Virus record (IMG/VR): IMGVR_UViG_2740892230_000028
Reading direction: 5' to 3' (one strand)
DNA length: 10,854 nucleotides
DNA from: a virus
Taxonomy: Duplodnaviria; Heunggongvirae; Uroviricota; Caudoviricetes
Shown here piece after piece: positions 1-10,854 of this stretch. Position 1 is the stretch's first letter, and each line of letters opens with the position of its first letter. Below the pieces are notes generated by a model. It did not search any database. It was given only the letters and a program-made list of their open reading frames with translations, and was not told where the DNA came from. The translations under genes were made by a program, and so were the position numbers.

Positions 1-178
1 CAGTTGCACCACTGACGACCACATCACCTTCTGCTGCAATCGCCTGCATCAGGGTATAAGGGGTTATGGCCACCGGACTACCAAACGGCTGCCAGCCCTC
101 TTTCAGTTTGTGTGTCAGCTTTTCCGCAAGGTCTGACGGCGACGCCGCCCTGACAACATCATAATGTTTAAATGTCAT
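1..178 (-). CDS. DUF1737-like small prophage protein, 5' portion only (gene continues beyond the window start)
   Basis: ATG at 178-176 preceded by GGAGG with 4-nt spacing; translation MTFKHYDVVRAASPSDLAEKLTHKLKEGWQPFGSPVAITPYTLMQAIAAEGDVVVSGAT stays open to position 1. Family assignment is from memory of similar small proteins upstream of lysis genes in lambdoid prophages. Confidence 0.6.
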   Translation of the reverse strand, partial: MTFKHYDVVRAASPSDLAEKLTHKLKEGWQPFGSPVAITPYTLMQAIAAEGDVVVSGAT

Positions 179-221
179 TATTCCTCCCGGCCGGGATAGT
201 GTATTAAATCAGATATGGAGT

Positions 222-266
222 GGGCTGTAGTCCGGAAGCCTGAATGACACACGGGGACTACAGCCC
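222..266 (-). other. Perfect 12-bp inverted repeat (GGGCTGTAGTCC / GGACTACAGCCC) with 21-nt loop, in the 5' leader of the DUF1737-like gene
   Basis: Arms at 222-233 and 255-266 are exact reverse complements; no U-run follows on either strand, so it is not a simple terminator. Confidence 0.5.
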
Positions 267-274
267 AAGAAATG

Positions 275-300
275 AAAAAAGGCCACGCAGTTGCGCAGCC
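275..300 (-). terminator. Intrinsic terminator, minus strand
   Basis: On the minus strand GGCUGCGCAACUGCGUGGCC forms an 8-bp stem that includes two G-U pairs, followed by UUUUUU. The G-U pairs become A-C mismatches on the plus strand, so the structure is strand-specific. Confidence 0.55.
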
Positions 301-362
301 TGATAAACCCTGGTTAAAATCCACACGATAACAACACAACAATATCAGTATCTCATGCTATT

Positions 363-388
363 GCCCGAACCCATTCGGGCATTTTTTA
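363..388 (+). terminator. Intrinsic terminator, plus strand
   Basis: GCCCGAA-CCCA-TTCGGGC perfect 7-bp stem (363-380) followed by ATTTTTTA. Confidence 0.6.
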
Positions 389-392
389 CCCA

Positions 393-418
393 TAAAAAAT
401 GCCCCTCCGGAGAGGGGC
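393..418 (-). terminator. Intrinsic terminator, minus strand (convergent with the 363-388 terminator)
   Basis: Palindrome GCCCCTC-CGGA-GAGGGGC at 401-418 with the A-run 394-399 on the plus strand, which is a U-run after the hairpin on the minus strand. The same palindrome recurs at 1513-1530 and 1709-1726. Confidence 0.55.
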
Positions 419-493
419 ATGTTTGCATGCACATTCTTTTTCTTGCATGGTGCCGGGTGCCTCCCGGTGAATTCAGNNNNNNNNNNTGGTCGT

Positions 494-520
494 AAAAAAA
501 AGGCCGCGCCATGCGCAGCC
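494..520 (-). terminator. Intrinsic terminator, minus strand
   Basis: Minus-strand GGCUGCGC-AUG-GCGCGGCC 8-bp stem (one G-U pair) followed by eight U. Confidence 0.6.
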
Positions 521-580
521 GAAAATAAAGGGATAACGATGATAGTTTGAGAAAAACAGAAACAACACTTTTGCGGCAAA

Positions 581-688
581 GCATGGTGCCGGGTGCCTCC
601 CGGTGAATTCAGTATCAGCACCTGAATCCGCGATTATCCCATATACCTGGTTGCTGATCGCCCCTCCGCACAGGGGGATTCACCATGC
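581..688. repeat. Structured repeat element bounded by 8-bp inverted termini GCATGGTG ... CACCATGC (full copy)
   Basis: Contains internal hairpins CCGGG-TGCCT-CCCGG and CCCCT-CCGCAC-AGGGG and an EcoRI palindrome. Related copies or parts at 445-476, 759-810, 1751-1874 and 1957-2028. Confidence 0.6.
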
Positions 689-758
689 AGTAGTATTTTT
701 AATAAACAGCAAATAAAAAAATCAAGCATTATGCAGGCTGTTTCTTTTNNNNNNNNNN

Positions 759-810
759 CCCCATATTCCTTCTTGCTGATTGCCCCACCGCACAGGGGGA
801 TTCACCATGC
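759..810. repeat. Partial copy of the structured repeat (right-hand module ending CACCATGC), truncated by an N-run
   Basis: Near-identical to 636-688 with a few substitutions; the downstream 811-870 also matches 689-748. Confidence 0.55.
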
Positions 811-1139
811 AGAAGTGTTTTTAATAAACAGCAAACAAAAAAATCAAGCATTATGCAGGCTGTTTCTTTTNNNNNNNNNNGTTCTTTCCACCATCTGAAA
901 AATGATTCTTTAAAATACCTGACATGTAATACAGAAAAAACACAAAACCATACCTTAATTAAAAACCTCATCATCAAGCAGATATGCATGGATAAACTAC
1001 AAGACGAGATATAAACCACCCTGCATTTAAATAAACAATAAACAACATCAGAAAAATAATTCTGCTCTATGGTTTACAATCAAAAATATCATTTATACTT
1101 TTCAGAACATCACCAGCAAGGCATAAACAAGGAAACTAA

Positions 1140-1475
1140 ATGAAGTGGATTGTGATTGATACAGTTATCCAGCCATCATGCGGAATATCTTTTTCAGTCA
1201 TATGGAGTAAAATAAAATTAATAATCTGGTATCAATCGGATGCTTTCTTACCTCCTGAAAGTATATTTACACTGACTCACACAGGCATCATGCTCAATAA
1301 CAAAGTGCTGCCTGTAACCATTTACAACGTAGTACCATTCAATAAAACATTCTGGAATTTAATCAAAAACAGCCAGGAATGCCCTACAAATACAGATAAC
1401 GTATTGAATGAATGCTTTAATAACCGTTGCACTCTGCAAATATGTCCTTATGGGCTAAAACAACAAAGTCCATAA
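1140..1475 (+). CDS. Hypothetical orphan ORF in an AT-rich island (111 aa), opposite in orientation to the prophage genes
   Basis: A 111-codon open frame in visibly AT-rich DNA where stops should be frequent; AGGA about 8 nt upstream of the ATG; stop codon sits inside a 9-bp inverted repeat (TCCTTATGG / CCATAAGGA, 1443-1476). No recognisable family. Confidence 0.25.
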
Positions 1476-1576
1476 GGAGTTTACTCACATCTGACAAAAT
1501 CAATATAAACAGCCCCTCCGGAGAGGGGCTGGAGAGTGGCGCTANNNNNNNNNNAGAGACAACAGCCCGCAATACG

Positions 1577-1599
1577 AAAAAGGCCGCGCTATTGCGCAG
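1577..1599 (-). terminator. Intrinsic terminator-like hairpin, minus strand
   Basis: Minus-strand CUGCGC-AAUA-GCGCGG stem followed by CC and UUUUU; third member of the GGCCRCGC...TGCGCAG family. Confidence 0.4.
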
Positions 1600-1667
1600 A
1601 GTGATTACTGTCGGATATTATTCGCCAGCTGAAATATTACTTCACGTTTTATTGTTTATTCCTTGCC

Positions 1668-1696
1668 GCCCGCGTCTCCCAGCGCGGGCTTTTTTT
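1668..1696 (+). terminator. Intrinsic terminator, plus strand
   Basis: GCCCGCG-TCTCCCAG-CGCGGGC 7-bp GC stem followed by TTTTTTT (1690-1696). Confidence 0.65.
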
Positions 1697-1750
1697 GTCC
1701 ATAAGAAAGCCCCTCCGGAGAGGGGCTGGAGAGTGGCGCTATGTGCCATT

Positions 1751-1874
1751 GCATGGTGCCGGGTGCCTCCCGGTGAGTTCAGCCCGGTGCCACTAAACCC
1801 TCGTCATTCTCGTTTTGATAATCAGAGATTATACCGTCACCAGTCGCCCCTCCGCTCAGGGGGATTCACCATGC
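1751..1874. repeat. Structured repeat element, variant copy with the same 8-bp inverted termini and a different central segment
   Basis: Starts GCATGGTGCCGGGTGCCTCCCGGTGAGTTCAG and ends ...CCCCTCCGCTCAGGGGGATTCACCATGC. Confidence 0.55.
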
Positions 1875-1956
1875 AAAACTTTTTTAACAACTCTCCGTCA
1901 ACCAGACAATCATCAACTGCCTGAATTGTGAGGCATTTAACATTTCNNNNNNNNNN

Positions 1957-2028
1957 CCAGCACCTGAATCCGCGATTATCCCATATACCTACTCGCTGAT
2001 TGCCCCTCCGCACAGGGGGATTCACCAT
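1957..2028. repeat. Partial copy of the structured repeat, bounded by N-runs on both sides
   Basis: Matches 615-686 with a few substitutions. Confidence 0.55.
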
Positions 2029-2038
2029 NNNNNNNNNN

Positions 2039-2179
2039 TATCACCGGCCACAGCAATACCACAATGCCGCAGACCAGCACCCCATCCGCCAGCACCGACA
2101 TGATTCTGCTGGTGAAATCCACCATCACCACCAGAAACAGCAGGAGTGCAGCCACAGCCAGGCGCAGTTTTACCGTCAC
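2039..2179 (-). CDS. Small membrane protein, N-terminal fragment (truncated by N-run)
   Basis: GTG start overlaps the upstream stop in a GTGA junction; MTVKLRLAVAALLLFLVVMVDFTSRIMSVLADGVLVCGIVVLLWPVI is strongly hydrophobic. GC content is higher than in the neighbouring morons. Confidence 0.35.
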
Positions 2180-2325
2180 AGGTGATTCTCCAGACGAAGA
2201 CCCAGAACACCGGCAATCTCTTCCAGCACCTTGCGCTCTTCCGGCTCAATTTCGCCGTCTGCCTCCGCAATGGCCACCGCCACATCCAGCACATCTTCCG
2301 CTTCACGCGTATCGTGTTTCACATC
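2176..2325 (-). CDS. TerB-like protein, C-terminal fragment (5' end lost in N-run)
   Basis: Translation ...DVKHDTREAEDVLDVAVAIAEADGEIEPEERKVLEEIAGVLGLRLENHL* has the AxAxADGxIxxxExxxLxEIAxxLG pattern typical of TerB-family C-termini; stop TGA at 2176-2178. Confidence 0.4.
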   Translation of the reverse strand, partial: DVKHDTREAEDVLDVAVAIAEADGEIEPEERKVLEEIAGVLGLRLENHL

Positions 2326-2398
2326 NNNNNNNNNNCAGTTTCTTTTAACAAACTCCCCGCAAAACAGACAACAGTCAACCGTCTGAATTGTGAGACAT

Positions 2399-2426
2399 TT
2401 AAAAAAAAGGCCCGCAAAAGCGAGCC
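2399..2426 (-). terminator. Intrinsic terminator immediately downstream of the tRNA cluster, minus strand
   Basis: Minus-strand GGCUCGC-UUUU-GCGGGCC stem (one G-U pair) followed by a run of about 10 U. Confidence 0.6.
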
Positions 2427-2440
2427 AGGGAAAATAAGTG

Positions 2441-2517
2441 TGGCGCGTTGTACTGGATTCGAACCAGTGACCGATTGCTTAGAAGGCAATTGCTCTGTCC
2501 GGCTGAGCTAACAACGC
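2441..2517 (-). tRNA. tRNA-Arg (anticodon UCU), prophage-encoded
   Basis: Hand-folded cloverleaf: acceptor GCGTTGT/ACAACGC, D stem GCTC/GAGC, anticodon stem ATTGC/GCAAT with loop CTTCTAA, T arm ACTGG-TTCGAAT-CCAGT, discriminator G, CCA present. Confidence 0.85.
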
Positions 2518-2530
2518 TGGATACAGATAA

Positions 2531-2607
2531 TGGACCGCCTTCGGGGACCCGAACTCCGCGCAACCAGCTTCGAAAGCTGGCGCTCTTTCCTGATGAGCTA
2601 ATGGCGG
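2531..2607 (-). tRNA. tRNA-Arg-like (anticodon UCG), possibly degenerate
   Basis: Perfect anticodon stem CCAGC/GCTGG with loop TTTCGAA and CCA end, but an A-A mismatch in the acceptor stem, one mismatch in the T stem, and T-loop TTCGGGT (G where A58 is expected). Confidence 0.5.
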
Positions 2608-2614
2608 TATGTGA

Positions 2615-2690
2615 TGGTGGCCCTTGCTGGATTTGAACCAGCGACCTGGCGATTATGAGTCGCTCGCTCTCACCACTGAGCTAAAGGGCC
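2615..2690 (-). tRNA. tRNA with CAU anticodon, Ile2-like (lysidine type) or Met elongator
   Basis: Acceptor GGCCCTT/AAGGGCC, D stem GCTC/GAGC, anticodon loop CTCATAA, T arm GCTGG-TTCAAAT-CCAGC, CCA. Overall close to the E. coli tRNA-Ile2 sequence as I recall it. Confidence 0.8.
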
Positions 2691-2718
2691 GGGTCAAAAA
2701 ATAATAATCAGATGAAAA

Positions 2719-3432
2719 TCAATAATCAAGCCCTTGCCTGGATACATATCTGTCTGGCGGGAAGCCATAATAGCGGTGAAATACAGAAATAAAGTAGGAC
2801 CAGCTTGAATAACCGCATTTTTCTGCTACAGCCTGTCCATATCCATGCCGGGAACATAACATATTCACAGCAACACGCATCCGCTCTTCCAGCAACAAGC
2901 GACTGAACATGTGCCCTTCATTTTTCAGTTTTATCTTTAACAAACTCTCACTCATATGCAGGCGTAACGCAATCGCACCAAGCGTCCAGCTTGCTGATAT
3001 ATCTGTCTGAATTATCGCCCTGACTTTGGCACTTATACTGGATAAACATCCACTTAAAAATAATAATATCCGTTCATCTGATTCAAACAGCGACAGGCAT
3101 GCCATCATAAGAAACATATCCGTGGTATCTCCGGAAAATCTCTGGCTGGTAATTAAAGCCTCAGCCAACGCAGGGTTGTTGGGTTCCAGTGACAGATAAA
3201 GCGGAACGTCAGTCAGATGAGTTCTTGTCAGCTTATGCTGAATTTCCAGATATTGACTTACTATGGAATGGTTTATATCGAAAATTTTAACTTTGCCATA
3301 ATGCATAAGGAAAAGCGCCCTGATGCATTTGGTGGCCAGAACGACTGAGCCGGGCTTAAGTGACAACGTATCCTTTTCAAGAAAAATATTAATTGGGGAG
3401 CAAACCATGATAACTGAACAGACAACAACCAT
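2719..3432 (-). CDS. AraC/XylS-family transcriptional regulator (prophage moron)
   Basis: C-terminal double HTH signature ...SWTLGAIALRLHMSESLLKIKLKNEGHMFSRLLLEERMRVAVNMLCSRHGYGQAVAEKCGYSSWSYFISVFHRYYGFPP...; AT-rich gene. Start is ambiguous (ATG at 3432 or 3408) and neither has a clear SD; a TATAAT-like hexamer abuts the first ATG. Confidence 0.8.
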   Translation of the reverse strand: MVVVCSVIMVCSPINIFLEKDTLSLKPGSVVLATKCIRALFLMHYGKVKIFDINHSIVSQYLEIQHKLTRTHLTDVPLYLSLEPNNPALAEALITSQRFSGDTTDMFLMMACLSLFESDERILLFLSGCLSSISAKVRAIIQTDISASWTLGAIALRLHMSESLLKIKLKNEGHMFSRLLLEERMRVAVNMLCSRHGYGQAVAEKCGYSSWSYFISVFHRYYGFPPDRYVSRQGLDY

Positions 3433-3570
3433 TATAATTTTACTTTCATTAGCAATTGGTTAGTTCAATTATAGCCCCAAAAGGTAAATTATCATCAACA
3501 CATAAGCAAAGGACTGACAGGTGCCGCTAACACCCACCAGCCGCCCATTTACCACAAATANNNNNNNNNN

Positions 3571-3781
3571 GCACCCGCCAGAACTGCGCCAGACACTGGT
3601 CCAGCCACTTCAGGTAATCATCGTCGCCCTTCCACTGGTTATCCCAGCCCTCAGGCTTCACTTTAAAGTACGGCGGGTCCGTGACTATCAGGTCAACAGA
3701 ATTTTCGGGTAACGACCGGATAAATTCCAGGCAGTCGGCGTTGATTAACTCACAACTGGATATTTTTACAGTATTAAGCAT
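3571..3781 (-). CDS. DNA N6-adenine/N4-cytosine methyltransferase, N-terminal fragment (interrupted by N-run)
   Basis: MLNTVKISSCELINADCLEFIRSLPENSVDLIVTDPPYFKVKPEGWDNQWKGDDDYLKWLDQCLAQFWRV contains the DPPY catalytic motif of amino-methyltransferases. Only about 70 codons lie before the N-run. Confidence 0.7.
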
Positions 3782-3920
3782 GGATCATTAAGCCTGTCTC
3801 TGATAGGCTCATTCTGCTTTTGCGCAAAGCAGTGGGCCTGAGGTTTGCTTGTGAACCCAACGCATGAGCAGATGGCTGGTGGGTGCCCCTAACACCCACC
3901 AGCCGCCCATTTACCACAAA

Positions 3921-3945
3921 TAAAAAAGCCTTCACTGCGGAAGGC
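3921..3945 (-). terminator. Intrinsic terminator after the small ORF, minus strand
   Basis: GCCTTC-ACTGCG-GAAGGC perfect 6-bp stem (3928-3945) with a six-U run on the minus strand (plus-strand A-run 3922-3927); the ORF stop lies within the hairpin. Confidence 0.6.
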
Positions 3946-4129
3946 GTCTGTAACAACCGAACTGATAGTCTGCCAGACCCGCCATAACCAGCTGGGTCAG
4001 TATTAACTGGCAGCGTTCGCGTGAAAGGTAAGTATTCTGCGCTATCTCCCCGACTGTCGCCGGTTCGGTAACGCTTAATTCATTAAACACCACTCTGGCG
4101 GTTTCTGTCATATCCTGCTGTTTTAGCAT
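3932..4129 (-). CDS. Small hypothetical protein (65 aa), possible winged-helix / HTH-like
   Basis: ATG at 4129-4127; MLKQQDMTETARVVFNELSVTEPATVGEIAQNTYLSRERCQLILTQLVMAGLADYQFGCYRRLPQ; terminator upstream (4252-4273) and downstream (3921-3945). The alternative start at 4111 would give 59 aa. Confidence 0.45.
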   Translation of the reverse strand: MLKQQDMTETARVVFNELSVTEPATVGEIAQNTYLSRERCQLILTQLVMAGLADYQFGCYRRLPQ

Positions 4130-4251
4130 GTCTTTTTCCCTTTTCCGGTTAACGTGACACACCAATAACTCTTGTCGAAAAAGCCAGCAAGCTGAAAGAC
4201 AGGTATTCACCGCCACCAGCACGTTTACTGTACTGACGCGATTTCAGTCAT

Positions 4252-4273
4252 AAAAAACCCGCCAGGCGGCGGG
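4252..4273 (-). terminator. Intrinsic terminator, minus strand
   Basis: CCCGCC-AGGC-GGCGGG stem (4258-4273) with a six-U run on the minus strand. Confidence 0.55.
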
Positions 4274-4373
4274 GTGTAAAAAATCTTCTAACGTCAGGCA
4301 TAAAACGCCCANNNNNNNNNNCTGTATTAATAACTACCAGCACATTTAACGCACTGCGCTACTTTGCGGGCAC

Positions 4374-4396
4374 AAAAAACCCGCTCAGAGGCGGGG
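4374..4396 (-). terminator. Intrinsic terminator downstream of the CPBP gene, minus strand
   Basis: CCCGC-TCAGAG-GCGGG stem with a six-U run on the minus strand; homologous to the 4252-4273 terminator. Confidence 0.5.
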
Positions 4397-4536
4397 TCAA
4401 GCTATGCGGCGAAATAACCACTCTTAACAGCATACCTGATTTTTTACGTACGTAAATGCTTTGCCGTGCATATTTTTCATGCAAATGTCACGTCCTGCTA
4501 TTTTTCAGTCTTATAAATTTAAAACCATAGAAAAAA

Positions 4537-5355
4537 TCAATTATGTTTTAAAAATGGATAGGTAAAGAATAACAAGTGACACAGATTCAAACCAAAATGG
4601 AAAAGGGTGGCAACCCACAAACGCCCACTCCACATCCATGACAATCCATACACAACACCAGATAACGTGGCAAATAATACAAGTAAAGCACCACCTGAAT
4701 AGTGATAAAAACCAAACAACAAAGCCGCCACAATTAATGCAACCAATGGAGACGTTACTTCTGATAGCCGTGATTGAATATACCCTCTAAATAATGATTC
4801 CTCTGCCAGAGACACAAAAAACAAATTAGCCAATATAAACTCTGGCAACCACTCAGGAAAATGAATCTCTGGCTTTAATCCACCAAAAAAAACAGCCAAA
4901 AACAGGATAAGAGGAACAGAGAGCGACAGAGCCCCCCACTTCCACAAAGACACTTCTGATTTTACTTCTTTTTTAAACAAAGAAGATGTACACAGGACTA
5001 ACAAAAATGGCACCAGCGCTTTATCAAAATTAAAATACATTGTATAGGGAGTACTTTGAGGGCCAACAGTAACAGAATTTAGCACTACAGGATTGTGAAA
5101 CCCTGGCCATAGATGGAAAGATAATGCTATGGCTGATAAAACTATGCCAACTTCATATATAGATTTAGCCCAGGCGTTATATTTCCAGTTGAACTTCAAA
5201 ATAATAAAAAAAACGATTGTAGCAACAAAAAATAACACCGACCAATCAATAATATCATTAAGCACAGCCAGGACAACAGACACCGTCAACAATGAAAAAG
5301 CCACTACCTTATGCCAACTGAGAGTTGACAGTGACAGTACTAACACAATCCACAT
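4537..5355 (-). CDS. CPBP-family (CAAX protease / Abi-domain) intramembrane metalloprotease-like protein, moron directly downstream of Q
   Basis: ATG at 5355 with AAGGAG 5 nt upstream; multi-TM hydrophobic protein carrying the three CPBP motifs in order: EESLFR (EExxxR), FGFYH (FxxxH), HFGLN (HxxxN). Gene and flanks are visibly AT-rich. Confidence 0.8.
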   Translation of the reverse strand: MWIVLVLSLSTLSWHKVVAFSLLTVSVVLAVLNDIIDWSVLFFVATIVFFIILKFNWKYNAWAKSIYEVGIVLSAIALSFHLWPGFHNPVVLNSVTVGPQSTPYTMYFNFDKALVPFLLVLCTSSLFKKEVKSEVSLWKWGALSLSVPLILFLAVFFGGLKPEIHFPEWLPEFILANLFFVSLAEESLFRGYIQSRLSEVTSPLVALIVAALLFGFYHYSGGALLVLFATLSGVVYGLSWMWSGRLWVATLFHFGLNLCHLLFFTYPFLKHN

Positions 5356-5507
5356 AAGCACTCCTTTTATTTAATGATGAAGATTGATTATCAATATTTT
5401 CAATTCACCAGGCAACATTTTATCTACCTTCCACAATACATGACCATCAAAAAAATAAACATGTTAATTATAAACACAGAAAACATAACCCTCATCACTA
5501 TATATCC
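5356..5507 (-). promoter_or_regulatory. AT-rich Q-to-moron intergenic region, the expected location of the late promoter and Q-utilisation site
   Basis: Positional inference from lambdoid gene order; a TATAAT hexamer lies on the minus strand at 5467-5472 with no convincing -35, and no GC hairpin terminator is present. Confidence 0.3.
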
Positions 5508-5879
5508 CTACCGCATATCCATATCTAACCGGACATTCAGAGCCATAAGCATTCCTTCAATAATACCTTCCGCTTTATAAAGCCTTTTACCAATAAGCCC
5601 ATCAGAACATCTATGCTTACGTGCAAGAGCCATAAATGTCATTCCACCTACGTAATAATCCACCAACAAATCGTGCAAATACTGATTATTCTTGTTTAAT
5701 CGTGCCATACAACCACAAATTATCATGGCGTCATCATCAGAACACTGAGGACGTGATTTCACTTTAGTCGGGATTAATCCTTTAAAACCAGCAGCTATCG
5801 AGGGCCATGTTACATCTTCATGATTATTTGCTGCCCATGCCCCCCATCGCTCAAGAACCATCTGGATATCACGCGCCAT
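5508..5879 (-). CDS. Short Q-family antitermination protein (quuD-like, ~124 aa)
   Basis: [61 protein letters not shown]...; ATG at 5879 with GAGGTGG 5 nt upstream; overlaps the rusA 3' end by 11 nt. Resembles the short antiterminator that follows rusA in E. coli DLP12, from memory. Confidence 0.7.
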
Positions 5880-6240
5880 CGTTACCACCTCTGATTTCGT
5901 AAATCTTCACGCCCAGCCGTCCACCTGGCACAGGCTGACCGCGCACAATATTGATTTCATCAAACTGCTCGTCATCAATGAGCACTTCCGCATGCGTCAG
6001 CGCATCCAGCGGTGCTTTCAGAATGTTGTCCAGGTCACGGCGGCGCTTATCCGGTGGTTCTGCAATAATTTTTATTGCCAGCCGTCCGGACAGGCTTAAT
6101 TTCAGCCGCTGCTGGCGAACAATAAGCGCCACAGCCCGGCGATAACGCTCACCGGCTTTTGATACAAAATATGTGCTGCCACGACGTCGCCAGTAGGTGT
6201 TCACCGTCGGCGGGTAAGGCAAAACAAACTCTATACGCAT
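5869..6240 (-). CDS. rusA: Crossover junction endodeoxyribonuclease RusA (Holliday junction resolvase)
   Basis: [41 protein letters not shown]...[31 protein letters not shown]... matches the conserved RusA core (DKRRRDLDN); AAGAGGT SD upstream of the ATG at 6240. Confidence 0.9.
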
Positions 6241-6252
6241 CAGTAACCTCTT

Positions 6253-6827
6253 TTACCCGAGCACGCCGGTTGCAAAAGCGTGATCAAGAAAACGAAAAAT
6301 TAAATCAACCTGGGAACCATGCTTTTCTTCGAACGCCAGCGGATCCGCATGAAGCTCGTTGTGATGCTCCCGACACAGCGGTAGCGTGAAAATATCGTGG
6401 GATTTTGTTCCCATTCCACCCTGACCATGACCAATCAGATGATGAGGATCGTCCGCTGGCTTACCACAACACGCACACGGCTGTGTCTTTACCCAGCGTG
6501 TGTATTTCTCATTTACCCAGCGGCGACGTTTAGGTCGTTTCATGAAGGATTCCGGAGACTCCGGATCAACGGCAATGCTGACCACCGTCTTTTCCTGTGG
6601 TGGGTTCTGTTGCTGGTGGGTGTGAGGCGGTAGCGCAATATTTTTTGTGCGCTGCTTCAGTATGCTGGTGGCGGTCTGTTCTCCCGGTATGATGTCGCTT
6701 TCACGGTATACGGAGCGGATTTTTTCCGCCGGTAATCCCAGAGAACGACGCGATACTGCCTCAGGTAATGCGTCCACCACCTGATTGCAGACTGCCCACC
6801 AGGATAATTCAGCCAGCGATAATTCCC
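6253..6827 (-). CDS. DUF968 (YdfU-like) prophage protein, C-terminal ~190 codons (5' end lost in N-run)
   Basis: ...ELSLAELSWWAV...TVVSIAVDPESP...WVKTQPCACCGKPADDPHHLIGHGQGGMGTKSHDIFTLPLCREHHNELHADPLAFEEKHGSQ...; stop TAA at 6253-6255 is 12 nt before the rusA start. Confidence 0.75.
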
Positions 6828-6837
6828 NNNNNNNNNN

Positions 6838-7148
6838 CCCACCACAACGCTGGCAGTTTCTGAAAACCGGCACACCCTGTTTTTCCGACTCTTCACGATG
6901 AATGGCAACACCGCGCCCACGACAATCTGTACAGGCGGTGGAAACCTCCCCCTTTCCGCCACACTCCGGACAGGCAACTTTTANNNNNNNNNNACCACCA
7001 CAACGCTGGCAGTCTCTGATAACAGGCATACCACGTTTTACCGACTCTTCACGATGAATGGCAACACCGCGCCCACGACAATCTTTACAGGCGGTGGAAA
7101 CCTCCCCCTTCCCTCCACACTCCGGACAGGCAACTTTTACCACCTCCC
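6838..7148 (-). repeat. Two near-identical ~150-bp coding units, each encoding a paired CxxCxGxG zinc-ribbon module, separated and flanked by N-runs
   Basis: 6838-6983 and 6994-7148 differ by several substitutions; each encodes ...KVACPECGGKGEVSTAC(K/T)DCRGRGVAIHREES.K.G.PV.R.CQRCGG. The same module begins at the end of the Q-like N-terminal piece (7159-7245). Confidence 0.6.
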
Positions 7149-7158
7149 NNNNNNNNNN

Positions 7159-7734
7159 GACACCACGCCCACGGCAATCCTTACAGGCGGTGGAAACCTC
7201 ACCCTTTCCGCCACACTCCGGACAGGCAACTTTTACCACCTCCCTGACTTTTTTCCATTCCTCCCAGTAAGACGGATACACGCCTTTTGTGCACTTTGCC
7301 CACACTGGCGGCTTACCATCCGGATACTGGATCTTGTTTGTAAAAACCTCGCTTTCAATAAATTTTTTTCCGTGACAGCAGGGGCACTGTTTTTTGCTCG
7401 CCGCGCTACGGGCATAATCTTCAAACGCATACGAAGCCATAATGCGCATCACTACCGGTTTTATTTCTGCCGGGAGTTTTCTCAACGCCGCCACACGATC
7501 GCACCGACTGAGTGCATAATCTGCCAGTAATTCTGTTGCCCGCGCCCTGTCATTCATACTGATGCCCATTTTCCCCAGGAACGCAGAAAACCCCATCTCA
7601 GCCCGATTCTGTGTCATGCCCTGCGCGGCCATCACATCAGTGATACTCAGCGCATCTTTTGACGTTGAGGCCGATGCATCAGTCAGGCCGGGGGATTTTG
7701 GGGAGTAGTATTTCGGTAAATCTTCCAGTTTCAT
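7159..7734 (-). CDS. Lambda-Q-family antitermination protein, N-terminal part (3' end lost in N-run)
   Basis: MKLEDLPKYYSPKSPGLTDASASTSKDALSITDVMAAQGMTQNRAEMGFSAFLGKMGISMND...MASYAFEDYARSAASKKQCPCCHGKK... aligns motif for motif with my recollection of the lambda Q N-terminus (SPKSP, TDVMAA.GM.Q, GF..AF.GK, S.ND, FAY.DY.RSAA, C..CHG). The ATG at 7734 overlaps the upstream rusA stop (ATGA). Confidence 0.65.
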
Positions 7735-7968
7735 TTTTTGACCTGCCCTTCAAGCATTATGGGGTAAATCTTCACCCCCATACGTCCACCAGATACTGGC
7801 TGACCACGAACGATATTGATTTCATCAAACTGCTCATCGTCCATTAACACTCCCGCATGCGTCAGCGCATCCAGCGGTGCTTTCAGGATATTGTCCAGGT
7901 CGCGACGACGCTTATCCGGTGGCTCTGCAATCACCTTTATCGCCAGCCTTCCGGACAGGCTTAATTTC
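7731..7968 (-). CDS. rusA: RusA, C-terminal half (5' end lost in N-run); runs directly into the Q-like gene
   Basis: ...[78 protein letters not shown]. Confidence 0.75.
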
Positions 7969-7978
7969 NNNNNNNNNN

Positions 7979-8243
7979 GCAACCCCGCATGCGTCAGCGC
8001 ATCCAGCGGCGCTTTCAGAATATTGTCCAGGTCACGGCGGCGCTTATCCGGTGGCTCGGCAATAATCTTTATCGCCAGCCTTCCGGACAGGCTTAATTTC
8101 AGCCGCTGCTGGCGAACAATAAGCGCCACAGCCCGGCGATAACGCTTTCCCTCCTCCGAGATAAAATATGTGCTGCCACGGCGTCGCCAGTAAGTGTTCA
8201 CCGTCGGCGGGTAAGGTAAAACAAATTCTATGCGCTCGGTCAT
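7979..8243 (-). CDS. rusA: RusA, N-terminal part (3' end lost in N-run); a different copy from 7731-7968
   Basis: [88 protein letters not shown]; the segment before the N-run overlaps in homology with the segment after it, so the two pieces are not contiguous. Confidence 0.75.
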
Positions 8244-8590
8244 TTATGCTTTCCACTTCAGAACACCCGAATTTCTCGCGTGCATTAAAAAACGAATCAG
8301 CAACAACAGCTGGCTGCCGTGTTTTTCTTCAAAATCTTTTACCCCGGCGTGTAGTTCGCTATGGCATTTACGGCACAGCGGAATAACAAACAAATCATCA
8401 GCCTTTGTTCCCATCCCTCCCAGTCCATGACCAATGATGTGATGCGGATCATCTGCCTGATTGCCACACGTCATGCATTTCTGCGTTTTTACCCAGCGCG
8501 TGTATACAGGCATCTCTTCCCGTTGTGATTTCTGGCGCTGGAGATACTGAGCCGGTGACTCCGGATCAACGGCAATGCTGACCACCGTCT
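8244..8590 (-). CDS. Divergent DUF968-type C-terminal Cys/His domain protein (5' end lost in N-run), immediately followed by rusA
   Basis: TVVSIAVDPESPAQYLQRQKSQREEMPVYTRWVKTQKCMTCGNQADDPHHIIGHGLGGMGTKADDLFVIPLCRKCHSELHAGVKDFEEKHGSQLLLLIRFLMHARNSGVLKWKA*; roughly half the residues match the other DUF968 C-termini. Confidence 0.6.
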
Positions 8591-8600
8591 NNNNNNNNNN

Positions 8601-8633
8601 TGGCGGGTAAGGTAAAACCAAATCTATGGGCAT
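8601..8633 (-). CDS. rusA: rusA 5' fragment (first 11 codons, then N-run)
   Basis: ATG at 8633 with AGAGGTGA SD; MPIDLVLPYPP matches the RusA N-terminus (cf. [11 protein letters not shown] at 6240). Confidence 0.6.
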
Positions 8634-8645
8634 CAGTCACCTCTT

Positions 8646-9088
8646 TTACCCAAGCACGCCTGTTGCGAAGGCGTGATCAAGAAAATGAAAAATTAACTCA
8701 ACCTGGGAGCCGTACTTTTTCTCAAACTCCAGCGGGTCAGCATGAAGTTCGTTGTGGTGCTCCCGGCACAACGGTAGTGTGAAAATATCGTGGGCCTTTG
8801 TTCCCATTCCGCCCTGCCCATGGCCAATCAGGTGATGCGGATCATCAGCTGGCTTTCCACAACATGCGCACGGCTGCGTCTTAACCCAGCGTGTGTACTT
8901 TTCATTAACCCAGCGACGACGTTTAGGCCGTTTCATGAAAGATTCCGGAGACTCCGGATCAACGGCGATGCTTACTACCGTCTTTTCCTGTGGCGTGGTT
9001 TGTGGCTGGTGGGCGTGAAGCGGTAGCGCTATGTTTTTTGTGCGCTGCTTCAGGATGCTGGTGGCGGTCTGTTCTCCCGGTATGATGT
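8646..9088 (-). CDS. DUF968 (YdfU-like) protein, C-terminal part (second copy; 5' end lost in N-run)
   Basis: ...IIPGEQTATSILKQRTKNIALPLHAHQPQTTPQEKTVVSIAVDPESPESFMKRPKRRRWVNEKYTRWVKTQPCACCGKPADDPHHLIGHGQGGMGTKAHDIFTLPLCREHHNELHADPLEFEKKYGSQVELIFHFLDHAFATGVLG*. Fragment 9099-9247 is a further paralogous linker piece. Confidence 0.75.
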
Positions 9089-9257
9089 NNNNNNNNNNCG
9101 GGTTTTGCTGGTGGGCGTGAGGCAGCGGCGCAAGATTTTTTGTGCGCTGCTTCAGTATGCTGGTGGCGGTCTGCTCTCCCGGTACGATGTCGCTTTCACG
9201 GTACATTGAGCGGATTTTTTCCGCACGCAACCCCAGCGAACGACGTANNNNNNNNNN

Positions 9258-9635
9258 TGATGTCGCTTTCACTGTACACAGAGCGAATTTTTTCCGCACG
9301 CAACCCCAGCGAACGACGTAATACCGCTTCCGGTAGCGCGTCCGCCACCTGATTGCGGACCGCCCACCAGGATAATTCAGCCAGAGATAATTCACGCTCC
9401 TGCGTACCGCTTATTGCGTGACGGATGATGTCAATCATCCAGGCGGCCAGATTCTGTTGAGCAAGTTGATCCAGTGAATCAGATGTCTGCTCCCGCAGCT
9501 GGTTGTCGCAGTGCCAGCACAACACCATTGCGCCGGTACCATAACGGTGAATGACGGTTTCGCTGTGATGATAATCACCGTGTAGCCACTGGCAGGATTT
9601 CACGTGACGTAATAACCAGTCAGACAGTGCACCAG
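9258..9635 (-). CDS. DUF968 protein, middle section (bounded by N-runs)
   Basis: GALSDWLLRHVKSCQWLHGDYHHSETVIHRYGTGAMVLCWHCDNQLREQTSDSLDQLAQQNLAAWMIDIIRHAISGTQERELSLAELSWWAVRNQVADALPEAVLRRSLGLRAEKIRSVYSESDI; about 90% identical to the overlapping part of 9646-10041. Confidence 0.7.
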
Positions 9636-9645
9636 NNNNNNNNNN

Positions 9646-10041
9646 TATGCCATTCATTGCGTGGCGGATGACGTCAATCATCCATGCTGACAGGTTTTGT
9701 TGAGCAAGTTGCTCAAGTGATTCGGATGTCTGGTCGCGCAGCTGGTTGTCGCAGTGCCAGCACAACACCATTGCGCCGGTACCATAACGATGTATGACAG
9801 TTTCGCTGTGATGATAATCACCATGAGGCCACTGGCAGGATTTAACGTGACGTAATAACCAGTCAGACAGTGCACCAGCGCCACCAGCAGCACGAATCAC
9901 ACGCTCATTGCTGAAAAATGGCAGTAATGATTTATCTTCCGCCAGCGGCTGGCGAACGGCAGGAACGACCCCGGACGGCAGATTACGCATGCTTTTCGGT
10001 TCCGGCTCCACCAGTACCCGGGTATTGTGGAATACCGGCAT
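9646..10041 (-). CDS. DUF968 protein, N-terminal section (3' end lost in N-run); start uncertain
   Basis: MPVFHNTRVLVEPEPKSMRNLPSGVVPAVRQPLAEDKSLLPFFSNERVIRAAGGAGALSDWLLRHVKSCQWPHGDYHHSETVIHRYGTGAMVLCWHCDNQLRDQTSESLEQLAQQNLSAWMIDVIRHAMNGI. ATG at 10041; an in-frame GTG at 10113 with GGAGGT 3 nt upstream is an alternative start. Confidence 0.6.
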
Positions 10042-10064
10042 GGATTCACGGCCCGGCTTAACGA

Positions 10065-10209
10065 TCACCAGCCCGAGTTCCGGTACCAGAACAGGTCGAA
10101 GTAATACCCGCACATTACCTCCAGATCCGTTGCTGGAATGTGCGGGACGGACGCGGTGGCCGTTCGGAGTAAGGGAGCCTGACGGAGATTATCCAGTGAC
10201 GGTAGTCGA
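10065..10209 (-). CDS. C-terminal fragment of an unidentified upstream nin-region gene
   Basis: Open frame ...RLPSLDNLRQAPLLRTATASVPHIPATDLEVMCGYYFDLFWYRNSGW* ending at TGA 10065-10067, 24 nt upstream of the DUF968 ATG; no family recognised. Confidence 0.3.
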
Positions 10210-10243
10210 NNNNNNNNNNGCGAATTGTAAACCAGAATGCCAG

Positions 10244-10271
10244 GAAAAAACAAAACCCGCCGAAGCGGGTT
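10244..10271 (-). terminator. Intrinsic terminator, minus strand
   Basis: AACCCGC-CGAA-GCGGGTT perfect 7-bp stem with a U-run on the minus strand; duplicate of 10811-10840. Confidence 0.55.
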
Positions 10272-10440
10272 AAGTGCNNNNNNNNNNTGACTTAAATGCG
10301 TGAGAATACCGCTCGTGCGTGTGGGCAAGAACGGTCGAATTATCATGTTTGTAATATTTTGCGTTGCGTGCCATCGGTTTTCTCCGGTGGCACGGTGTTA
10401 CTCAGCGGGAGTTCAGCCCCGCGCAAGATTGTAGATGAGT

Positions 10441-10692
10441 TTATTCTTCTGAAAAAGCAGAAAAGCCAGCTTTTATTCCGATCTCTTTCAATACCTGTAA
10501 TGAAGTGACAAACTCACCGTCGCGCAAGATAAATCCGTCCGTCACTCGGGCATCCACAAAATTAATTAACGCAGCCCCATTTTTTTGCAAACACACAATG
10601 CGGTAATGACTAACAATATTTCCATTTTCAACGCACACAGCATAGAGGCCATCTTCACAAAAAATTTTACGCAGTTCTTCGATGTTCATCAT
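10441..10692 (-). CDS. Hypothetical prophage protein (83 aa)
   Basis: ATGATG start with GGAAGGA about 7 nt upstream; MMNIEELRKIFCEDGLYAVCVENGNIVSHYRIVCLQKNGAALINFVDARVTDGFILRDGEFVTSLQVLKEIGIKAGFSAFSEE; compact gene with terminators on both sides. Confidence 0.6.
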   Translation of the reverse strand: MMNIEELRKIFCEDGLYAVCVENGNIVSHYRIVCLQKNGAALINFVDARVTDGFILRDGEFVTSLQVLKEIGIKAGFSAFSEE

Positions 10693-10810
10693 CAGAATCC
10701 TTCCGGATAATTAGCTCTCCCCTTTAAGGGACCATCCCTCTTATCCCTGCGCGCTACTTAAGTATTTTTGATTCTATTCCGGCACCGTCCAGAACTTCAA
10801 ATGCGTTGAA

Positions 10811-10840
10811 AATAAAAACAAAAACCCGCCGAAGCGGGTT
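10811..10840 (-). terminator. Intrinsic terminator, minus strand
   Basis: AACCCGC-CGAA-GCGGGTT stem (10823-10840) preceded on the plus strand by an A-rich run, which is a U-run after the hairpin on the minus strand. Confidence 0.6.
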
Positions 10841-10854
10841 AAGTGCGGGTGCGT

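Follow-up and report, generated by a model that had tools for sequence, protein, structure and literature searches.

STnc100 is a gammaproteobacterial sRNA that was first listed in Salmonella Hfq/sRNA screens. Its family, in Rfam and the literature since 2008-2014 and described in EHEC and EPEC as EcOnc27, sRNA103 and PasD relatives, is well known from lambda-like prophages of pathogenic E. coli. It ranks with the most abundant prophage RNAs that Hfq binds in EHEC and EPEC and adjoins stx2, and when machine learning was used to predict HUS in O157:H7, variants of it were the strongest predictors (PMC12711010). Hfq-bound relatives occupy the stretch that separates the lysis genes from the Q/tRNA region and pair convergently with AgvB or AsxR: EcOnc27, which crosslinks to Hfq in CRAC, is convergent to AsxR, and EcOnc06 to AgvB, an arrangement described as an sRNA/anti-sRNA dyad (PMC4104026, PMC7873438). 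In EDL933, 11 STnc100 copies are transcribed as seen by RNA-seq, and one by Northern blot. PasD, which has common ancestry with STnc100, depends on Hfq for its stability and forms RIL-seq chimeras that, like its predicted seed, fall within its last ~50 nt, with targets that come from RIL-seq only; overexpression of sRNA103 alters fimZ and espA levels. The function even of these characterised relatives is weakly established.

Identity of the repeated element

The window, by which we mean the whole 10,854-nt stretch of Caudoviricetes DNA analysed here, had been annotated from its letters as carrying, at 445-2028, a recurring structured element with 8-bp inverted termini, taken for either a prophage sRNA family or a MITE-like repeat and left without a place in any known family. 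An Rfam scan supplies that place, since STnc100 (RF02076), a long-documented family, is matched on the minus strand at 1697-1902 (158.3 bits) and 545-714 (102.4 bits) against a gathering score of 47, with E = 7e-37 for copy D and 1e-22 for copy B, as the two complete copies are called here. A fragment at 1925-2028 scores 25.4 bits against RF02076, under the threshold because it is truncated. Our own covariance model (R1) recovers 581-688, 1751-1874, 1923-2030 and 726-810, and the repeat motifs occur in the window far above chance expectation. Searched with E up to 1, the core is matched by no Rfam family besides STnc100. Weak, sub-threshold matches to asX2, Phe_leader, GcvB and OmrA-B were rejected as chance.

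The element is an already known STnc100-family prophage sRNA gene and no new repeat. With a probability of about 0.9, the window contains STnc100-family sRNA genes that recur five-fold within 1.6 kb mainly because the scaffold sets allele pieces of four or more prophage copies in series. An annotation of the region should name STnc100-family sRNA genes, partnered by AgvB, in the late region of a lambdoid prophage, and should treat the apparent repeat cluster as an artefact of scaffolding a multi-prophage genome of STEC/EPEC-like type.

Table 1 STnc100-family genes, gene pieces and contig joins in the window (positions from its first letter; X and X' are the two pseudoknot strands)
Feature	Position	Strand	Evidence or remark
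AgvB anti-sRNA gene	326-387	+	Rfam RF02702, 96.5 bits
Third gene, 3' part, contig-end cut at 476	392-476	-	32-nt exact match to 581-612
Third gene, tail and terminator	392-444	-	terminator at 399-420
Copy B, complete sRNA gene	494-725	-	Rfam 102.4 bits; R1 135 bits; motif coordinates
Copy B, terminator stem-loop	502-520	-	U-run at 494-501
Copy B, A/U-rich tail	521-580	-	
Copy B, core	581-688	-	MFE fold, family covariation
Copy B, helices	P1 688-681/588-581; P2 hairpin 676-661; P3 629-622/612-605; P4 hairpin 603-589	-	
Copy B, pseudoknot	X 658-652 with X' 620-614	-	X' in P3 loop
Fourth gene, 5' half, contig-end cut at 759	759-847	-	R1 match 726-810
Orphan STnc100 tail and terminator	1510-1544	-	ends iraM-bearing contig piece
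Copy D, complete sRNA gene	1700-1909	-	Rfam 158.3 bits, full length
Copy D, terminator	1708-1727	-	U-tract at 1700-1707
Copy D, tail	1728-1750	-	
Copy D, core	1751-1874	-	
Copy D, helices	P1 1874-1867/1758-1751; P2 1862-1847; P3 1800-1793/1782-1775; P4 1773-1759	-	
Copy D, pseudoknot	X 1843-1838 with X' 1789-1784	-	CUGGUG with CACCGG
Further allele, middle (core nt 3-74)	1957-2028	-	72-nt contig piece between N runs
Orphan promoter	2336-2402	-	-35 TTGTCT 2366-2371, -10 TAAAAG 2342-2347
10-N contig joins within the finding	477-486, 749-758, 871-880, 1545-1554, 1947-1956, 2029-2038, 2326-2335		

Copies, fragments and assembly

The five stretches listed in the initial annotation (445-476, 581-688, 759-810, 1751-1874 and 1957-2028) are all present with the modules ascribed to them, namely the termini GCATGGTG and CACCATGC and the hairpin motifs CCGGG-N5-CCCGG and CCCCT-N6-AGGGG. 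The EcoRI palindrome also listed there lies within helix P3 in some alleles but reads GAGTTC in 1751-1874, and of the copies called full or partial two are complete (581-688 and 1751-1874) and the rest cut at runs of 10 N. Three more pieces of these genes had been missed (1510-1544, 2336-2402 and 392-444).

Loci in O111/O45 STEC genomes match copy D at 100% identity and sit between tRNA-Ile/Arg/Arg and a SASA esterase gene. Positions 445-476 hold the end of the P3 3' strand, P4 and the P1 3' strand of the third gene, which is convergent with AgvB, the two terminators standing back-to-back (Table 1); the same order of core, tail and AgvB is found in viral contigs u4/u25/u35. For the fourth gene a -35 at 842-847 and a -10 at 818-823 precede a +1 near 810, and core nt 1-52 occupy 759-810; the region is a 93% repeat of 638-758 at an offset of 122 and corresponds to viral-contig allele u8. 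The piece at 1957-2028 is u0, the commonest E. coli allele, and is 100% identical to the single locus of L001/L204. The last 34 nt of the orphan tail (1511-1544) duplicate 1708-1741 exactly, and in L001/L002/L170 the 1510-1544 sequence runs directly into a single u0-type core. The orphan promoter, a 78% repeat of 1881-1940 that corresponds to the class I upstream region of viral contigs, lies directly downstream of a tRNA-Arg terminator (2409-2426) on a contig piece that ends 6 nt past the -10, just short of where the core would start.

The window contains 19 runs of exactly 10 N, and for 11 contig pieces the terminal 34-mer has an exact duplicate at another place in the window, which is the signature of chained assembly-graph contigs. 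The five copies lie on five such pieces joined by 10-N spacers, three of them (445-476, 759-810 and 1957-2028) being cut exactly at the N runs, at pieces that terminate in 27-34-nt exact repeats. These joins leave it unproven that the five copies are physically clustered within 1.6 kb. Among 5,426 complete E. coli genomes, none has at least 80% of window 1-2700 at a single site, and from the absence of this layout in finished genomes we conclude that the cluster arose largely by the scaffolding of four or more prophage alleles. Window 1-178 continues into AgvB, and its other natural continuation, iraM (881 onward), comes later, an order with which no finished genome is collinear. Alleles of Q, RusA and DUF968 are also serially repeated further along the window.

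Each of these points tells against a true tandem array of STnc100 genes in one prophage, as does EDL933, whose 11 copies are spaced at least 27.7 kb apart. Such arrays do exist in N-free sequence: three copies lie within 600 nt between iraM and the tRNAs in E. albertii L170, two complete genes 275 nt apart in viral contig L053, three copies at 257-nt spacing in Superficieibacter L144 and several in Leclercia L201. Even so, we consider an array in this window unlikely. The initial annotation had named, among the findings that would refute it, copies that are only assembly duplicates of one locus with no promoter activity; in part this is the case, since the multiplicity comes largely from the assembly of several alleles of one locus type.

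RNA structure and covariation

The STnc100 alignment sets GCAUGGUG/CACCAUGC as closing helix P1, and the 8-bp inverted termini reported for the element are this closing helix of an RNA, the two reported hairpins being P2 and P4. P1 is followed by hairpin P2 (CCCC/GGGG), P3 and hairpin P4 (CCGGG AGGCA CCCGG) to give a compact 108-124-nt core, in which the loop of P3 pairs with the strand that follows P2 and so forms a pseudoknot. Across the family, core lengths run from 91 to 136 nt. Minimum free energy folding recovers all four helices in the cores of copy B (z = -3.10) and copy D (z = -3.02). The whole 195-nt copy B RNA is not unusually stable (z = -1.19), as expected if its tail is single-stranded.

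The stems covary, as the initial annotation had proposed to check. In an alignment of 116 distinct family members fitted to this structure, double-sided changes are seen in 22 of the 26 pairs, a count reached by 0 of 500 shuffles, and the covariation score is 0.302 compared with at most 0.063 for slid partners; paired cells amount to 92.5% in these members and 81.4% in shuffles. All eight P3 pairs covary, with G-U the commonest pair at one position. The covariance-model alignment gives no column-wise count for the pseudoknot because its loops are insert columns; the pseudoknot was tested by comparing matched with mismatched-partner helices. Members form a helix of at least 6 bp with their own loop in 66% of cases; the share falls to 23% when the loop comes from another member and to 15% when it is shuffled. 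Our own parse yields 76 distinct complementary versions. The conserved core thus carries a covarying pseudoknot that is missing from the Rfam structure. The RNAalifold consensus of a 2026 preprint could not have predicted it.

A CsrA-type GGA loop motif in P2 was considered and rejected, its last A being variable (GCGGA 66, GCGGU 25, GCGGC 26).

Transcription unit, genomic slot and proposed mode of action

Copy B has a -35 TTGATT (720-725), an 18-nt spacer and a -10 TAAAAA (696-701) in front of a predicted +1 at G688, and copy D a -35 TTGTCT (1904-1909), a 17-nt spacer and a TG-extended -10 TAAAAA (1881-1886) in front of a predicted +1 near G1874, giving predicted RNAs of ~195 nt and ~175 nt, respectively. 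The promoter - RNA - terminator layout first seen around 581-688 holds up, its +1 and its terminator fitting the mapped ends of PasD1 (NC_011601 1060260-1060432), which has its 5' end at the G of GCAUGGUG behind TTGACT-18-TAAAAA and its 3' end at GGCUGCGCAUGGCGCGGCC-U8. Copy B shares both the promoter class and the terminator sequence of PasD1, and the layout also fits Rfam STnc100, in favour of the sRNA-gene side of the original proposal. A generic sigma-70 scan requires a T as the sixth base of the -10 and for that reason flagged none of these promoters; they were located by comparison with PasD1 and by a spacing conserved across genera, and the +1 assignment therefore rests on PasD1 and motif spacing, from which we infer the exact positions in the window. 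The Rfam model starts 29 nt farther upstream, so a longer primary transcript is possible.

Of 120 viral contigs, 119 have one copy of the element, always in the same slot, and every one of the 200 tRNAs found no more than 5 kb away is upstream of the element and on its strand. Q-like genes, tRNAs and element are all on the minus strand in the window, which also has both the slot and the AgvB partner by which the convergent sRNA dyad of lambdoid prophages is recognised (Tree et al. 2014).

Each unit would then be an independent minus-strand transcription unit running in the direction of the late operon (Q, tRNAs, lysis genes). A sigma-70 promoter (-35 TTGATT/TTGTCT, 17-18 nt, -10 TAAAAA) would start the RNA at or beside the first base of GCAUGGUG, and the core would be followed by a 20-60-nt allele-specific A/U-rich tail and an intrinsic terminator, for a total of ~175-195 nt. 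By analogy with PasD and EcOnc27, Hfq would bind through the 3' tail and terminator, and the RNA would act by trans base pairing with its seed in the variable tail. A simple seed-pairing model leaves the extreme conservation of the core unexplained, and the conserved 5' core may have some common role, putatively as a 5'-end protective or scaffold domain.

The core outside prophage sRNAs and other readings

In other genera the core heads KdgM-porin mRNA leaders. A literature search for a kdgM leader RNA returned nothing relevant.

The loops and junctions of the core are near-invariant (UGGUGAAUCCCCCU..GCGG.GGGG ... ACCGGGAGGCACCCGGCACCA), with P1, P3 and the P3-loop pseudoknot covarying, and the core may be used both by stand-alone sRNAs, sometimes in tandem, and by mRNA leaders, the clearest case being the orthologous KdgM-family porin gene. 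It is possible, if doubtful, that it is a widespread pseudoknotted 5'-terminal RNA domain of Enterobacteriaceae with a cis-acting role such as the sensing of a ligand or protein or 5'-end protection. A separate reading, that the core is primarily a cis-acting leader (a riboswitch-like sensor or 5' stabiliser) for downstream genes and the short RNA a terminated by-product, seems improbable to us. Junction and loop nucleotides that stay near-invariant in more than 15 genera while the stems covary, the pseudoknot with a variable insert, and the position of the core at the transcript +1 in many genera would all suit a leader; in the fetched loci all 20 KdgM-porin genes are preceded, at a distance of 79-221 nt, by a core on their own strand, some with a terminator-like hairpin in between, and MarR-like, NlpC/P60 and lipoprotein ORFs directly follow other copies. 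However, prophage cores precede a strong terminator and then varied genes or none, and the lack of sequence conservation from P1 to the terminator leaves no shared expression platform in view. Relatives are bound by Hfq and, via the 3' tail, make chimeras with many mRNAs, the KdgM association may be a single vertically inherited locus, and no ligand or protein partner of the core is known. The covarying pseudoknot and the porin-leader siblings are handles for mutational tests of the core's role and, if true, the domain reading points to a cis-acting role so far undescribed.

A mobile or recombinogenic DNA repeat, with the 8-bp inverted termini acting as DNA, is by contrast highly improbable. 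Like MITE, REP and ERIC elements, the unit is short and multi-copy with inverted ends, and it has inverted 8-mers at its ends, recurs many times in a genome and has flanks that are shuffled as modules; unlike them it keeps its locus and its orientation relative to the tRNAs and late operon (200/200), has in every unit its own promoter, starting at the first base of the inverted repeat, and its own terminator, and strongly matches an RNA family with documented transcripts. The termini themselves covary in the manner of RNA: one terminal-helix pair is A-U in 45 and G-C in 67 members and the next C-G in 38 and U-A in 39, and G-U pairs, which would be mismatches in DNA or on the other strand, are used. 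Inverted repeats conserved as DNA were rejected on account of these compensatory substitutions and G-U pairs, and the MITE half of the initial annotation falls with them. Inspection of the element flanks found no target-site duplications beside the GCATGGTG...CACCATGC ends.

A small protein, for example from the 23-codon frame that opens at an AUG inside GCAUGGUG, is equally remote: several EDL933 STnc100 copies do have sizeable ribosome footprints (ribosomal coverage values, RCV, up to 3.2) and RefSeq puts a pseudo or hypothetical CDS over the element, but 5'-module variation falls at codon positions 1 and 2, coinciding with hairpin-loop positions (P2 variants), core length varies without 3-nt periodicity, the AUG becomes GUG or UGU in most genera, and the annotated CDSs are on the opposite strand and mutually inconsistent. 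The variation at non-wobble positions and the length changes not in threes led us to reject the small-ORF reading.

Comparison with known systems

As STnc100-family sRNA genes, the window copies agree with the Rfam model over full-length sequence and secondary structure (P1/P2/P3/P4), prophage setting and terminator module. They differ in that copy B has a PasD-type 3' tail and terminator in place of the model's, and the Rfam consensus is without the pseudoknot and takes in ~29 nt of probable promoter. EcOnc27 (= sRNA103, downstream of stx2B) and EcOnc06 of O157:H7 share with the window the slot between Q/PR'/tRNAs and the lysis genes, the convergent anti-sRNA dyad and a reported overlap with STnc100, a likeness by slot and not by allele alignment; the window contains no stx genes.

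PasD1/PasD2 of EPEC E2348/69 are Hfq-dependent RIL-seq hubs with the same promoter class and a +1 at the same G; with copy B they have in common the GGCUGCGCAUGGCGCGGCC terminator and a similar tail, and P1, P2, P3 and the pseudoknot are kept. The PasD core, however, is degenerate, with P2 shortened and P4 largely lost, and at 37.7 bits falls below the Rfam cut-off, whereas the core of copy B is of canonical STnc100 type. The PasD seed UGUGAG is not in the copy B tail, so its targets should differ from those of PasD. Copy B is a sibling of PasD, not PasD itself.

Identity and transcript of the repeated element

The search for a known family identified the element of the window as STnc100 (RF02076), called twice by Rfam at the gathering threshold (cut-off 47): 158.3 bits for 1697-1902(-) and 102.4 bits for 545-714(-). 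The element is thus a member of an already known sRNA family, which bears out one half of the initial proposal of a prophage sRNA family or MITE-like repeat. The stretches originally named (445-476, 581-688, 759-810, 1751-1874 and 1957-2028) are present and have the described modules in common, and the Rfam alignment pairs GCAUGGUG with CACCAUGC as the closing helix, with both hairpins as internal helices. The RNA has the sequence of the minus strand and runs the same way as the Q-like genes, the tRNAs and the lysis-proximal DUF1737 gene.

The EPEC sRNA PasD1 is mapped to NC_011601 1060260-1060432 (173 nt). Read in the genome sequence, the RNA starts at the G of GCAUGGUG, 7 nt past the TAAAAA of a promoter with TTGACT and an 18-nt spacer, and its 3' end is GGCUGCGCAUGGCGCGGCC followed by U8. 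Copy B (gene at 494-725(-), core 581-688) has the promoter arrangement, G start and terminator in common with PasD1, so the promoter-RNA-terminator model of ~195 nt first drawn for it is right. In other genera recurring promoters, judged by eye, would place the +1 on the first base of P1, the closing helix. Since the PasD seed and RIL-seq chimeras lie within the last ~50 nt of the RNA, we infer that the variable tail is the trans-acting part.

Positions 1-29 of the RF02076 model align to the apparent -10 region and promoter spacer (window 1875-1902; 331-360 in the fetched locus L215), and the mapped PasD1 5' end falls at model position ~30; the family model is probably over-extended at its 5' end. 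RefSeq pseudo or hypothetical CDS opposite the STnc100/PasD1 strand (L001 2345-2470, L215 401-799) are probably spurious calls over sRNA genes.

Features of the window
Feature	Position	Strand	Basis or remark
AgvB anti-GcvB sRNA gene	326-387	+	Rfam RF02702, 96.5 bits; matches the model consensus at all aligned positions
Copy B -35 TTGATT	720-725	-	sequence motif
Copy B -10 TAAAAA	696-701	-	18-nt spacer from -35; 7 nt, then G688
Copy B terminator	502-520	-	same as PasD1 terminator
Copy D -35 TTGTCT	1904-1909	-	sequence motif
Copy D TG-extended -10 TAAAAA	1881-1886	-	17-nt spacer from -35
Copy D +1	near 1874	-	predicted
Copy D terminator	1708-1727	-	sequence motif
Three tRNAs	2441-2690	-	Rfam
Pieces, each with its own "copy"	1-476; 487-748; 759-870; 1555-1946; 1957-2028		five pieces
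Q-like antiterminators	5508-5888; in 6253-7734		serial allelic duplicates across 10-N joins
RusA	5869-6240; 7731-8243		serial allelic duplicates across 10-N joins
DUF968/HNH	C-terminal end of 6253-7734; 8244-8633; 8646-9395		serial allelic duplicates across 10-N joins

Multiplicity of the element

The window is discontinuous, being interrupted 19 times by exactly 10 N; seven of these interruptions fall within 445-2340. Eleven pieces have at their end an exact 34-mer with further occurrences in the window, other pieces end in 26-32-nt repeats, and these ends have the look of assembly-graph contigs broken where paths branch. Two copies, 581-688 and 1751-1874, are complete; the other three are cut at piece ends. 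The shared modules first noted are real, but the multiplicity of the copies is largely an assembly product. All five map in finished genomes to one locus, flanked by an iraM-like gene and tRNA-Arg, with which the window order is not collinear: in the fetched loci L001 and L170, 1-178 joins 881-1544 directly, where the window puts the AgvB path between. Taken singly, the pieces match loci in O111, O26 and O145 STEC genomes at 99-100% identity, each genome having 2-10 such places. Downstream, serial repeats of alleles also occur for Q, RusA and DUF968, and ORFs in 2700-10854 read through N runs. Overall, the window resembles a chain of several prophage alleles, and our conclusion is that it joins at least four prophage alleles of a single locus type. 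This is not certain, because real two- or three-copy tandems exist in E. albertii (in this very slot), a viral contig, Superficieibacter and Leclercia. Genuine arrays, with two to four genes of the STnc100 type (L144 6323-7018, L201 5406-6576, L170 4878-5452, L053 1380-1850), lie on contigs without N, and every gene in them has a separate promoter-like region and terminator. In the window, by contrast, each copy stands on a separate piece, and none of 5,426 complete E. coli genomes has at least 80% of 1-2700 in one place, which makes a real tandem array in one prophage less likely than chained alleles.

The MITE-like reading was rejected, a mobile repeat being ruled out by single copies (one per contig in 119/120 viral contigs), a fixed slot and orientation to the tRNAs (200/200 of those within 5 kb upstream, on the same strand) and the lack of target-site duplications at the element. 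The flanks recombine as modules, with two promoter classes and several tails.

Structure and wider family

Two sets of loci were collected, 120 viral contigs (search anchor, 3' module) and 91 loci of species-representative genomes (5' module). All loci sampled score as STnc100 in Rfam, with matches in Kosakonia, Enterobacter, Klebsiella, Raoultella, Citrobacter, Leclercia, Superficieibacter, Trabulsiella, Erwinia and others. With a covariance model built on ten 108-nt cores, 123 copies were detected. Among the 116 distinct rows, in an alignment whose fit to that model tilts the figures towards the structure, paired cells reach 92.5% against 81.4% shuffled, double-sided changes occur in 22/26 pairs (reached by 0/500 shuffles), the covariation score of 0.302 compares with 0.126 after shuffling and no more than 0.063 for slid partners, and 8/8 pairs of P3 covary. 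One P3 position is G-U in most members and makes sense only for RNA of the minus strand, the element's own. P1 is solid in its six inner pairs; the third pair of this helix alternates between G-C and A-U, its outer two are kept in only ~63% of members, and P4 is near-invariant.

Outside Rfam's structure, the strand directly 3' of P2 and the loop of P3 have complementary sequences (strand/loop AUCAGCA/UGCUGAU for copy B, CUGGUG/CACCGG for copy D, the gene at 1700-1909(-), and AAUGAUC/GAUCAUU for PasD1); our own parse of 117 cores gives 76 different complementary versions. With P3 boundaries set by the covariance model, this helix is at least 6 bp long in 66% of members, compared with 23% for other members' loops and 15% for shuffled loops. 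Because P3 covaries as well as the loop pairing, the arrangement is a predicted H-type pseudoknot.

All 20 KdgM-family porin ORFs among the loci fetched (Pfam PF06178, E = 8.5e-74) have a same-strand core 79-221 nt upstream. The porin gene of L129, L137-L140, L145, L147, L153, L163, L167, L171, L179, L183-L185, L192, L205 and L212 is orthologous (233 aa; Kosakonia, Klebsiella, Enterobacter, Citrobacter, Raoultella), and the Klebsiella loci have a terminator-like hairpin between core and ORF. MarR-like, NlpC/P60, TolA-C-like and small lipoprotein ORFs immediately follow other cores. Across genera, the bases of loops and junctions hardly vary, which suggests that the core may have a function of its own, a subject on which we found no paper. 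isrI (RF01392) adjoins STnc100 copies in L125, L156, L188 and L201.

Convergent partners and comparison with known systems

A plus-strand terminator at 1668-1689 is preceded by CACGUUUUAUUGUUUAUUCCUUGCCG (window 1643-1696). This stretch matches no Rfam family and is very similar to the EPEC RIL-seq sRNA candidate 'E2348C_1409.E2348C_1408.IGR', which has the seed CUUGCG (PMC8550237 suppl. Fig. S5). Being convergent with the complete copy at 1700-1909, it is probably another dyad partner. The 111-aa ORF at 1140-1475(+), named anti-adapter protein IraM by RefSeq in the matching genomes L001 and L002 and without a Pfam match, is a moron gene that runs against the direction of the late operon and adjoins the STnc100 slot.

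The STnc100 sRNAs form an established prophage family. EDL933 has 11 copies spaced at least 27.7 kb apart, all transcribed and one Northern-positive (PMC5331693), and the copy downstream of stx2B overlaps EcOnc27 (sRNA103), which is Hfq-crosslinked and whose overexpression increases the fimZ and espA transcripts (PMC12711010, PMC7873438). STnc100 has been found in outer membrane vesicles by qPCR (PMC12370729), with published primers that copy B matches exactly, and a 2026 preprint derives PasD1/PasD2 and STnc100 from a common ancestor. Tree et al. described Hfq-bound sRNAs in convergent pairs, AsxR/EcOnc27 and AgvB/EcOnc06, between PR'/Q and the lysis genes in at least 8 Sakai prophages (PMC4104026, PMC7873438). 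AgvB of the window is convergent with the cut STnc100 copy at 392-476, their terminators back-to-back at 362-381(+) and 399-420(-), and the two have the layout of these pairs.
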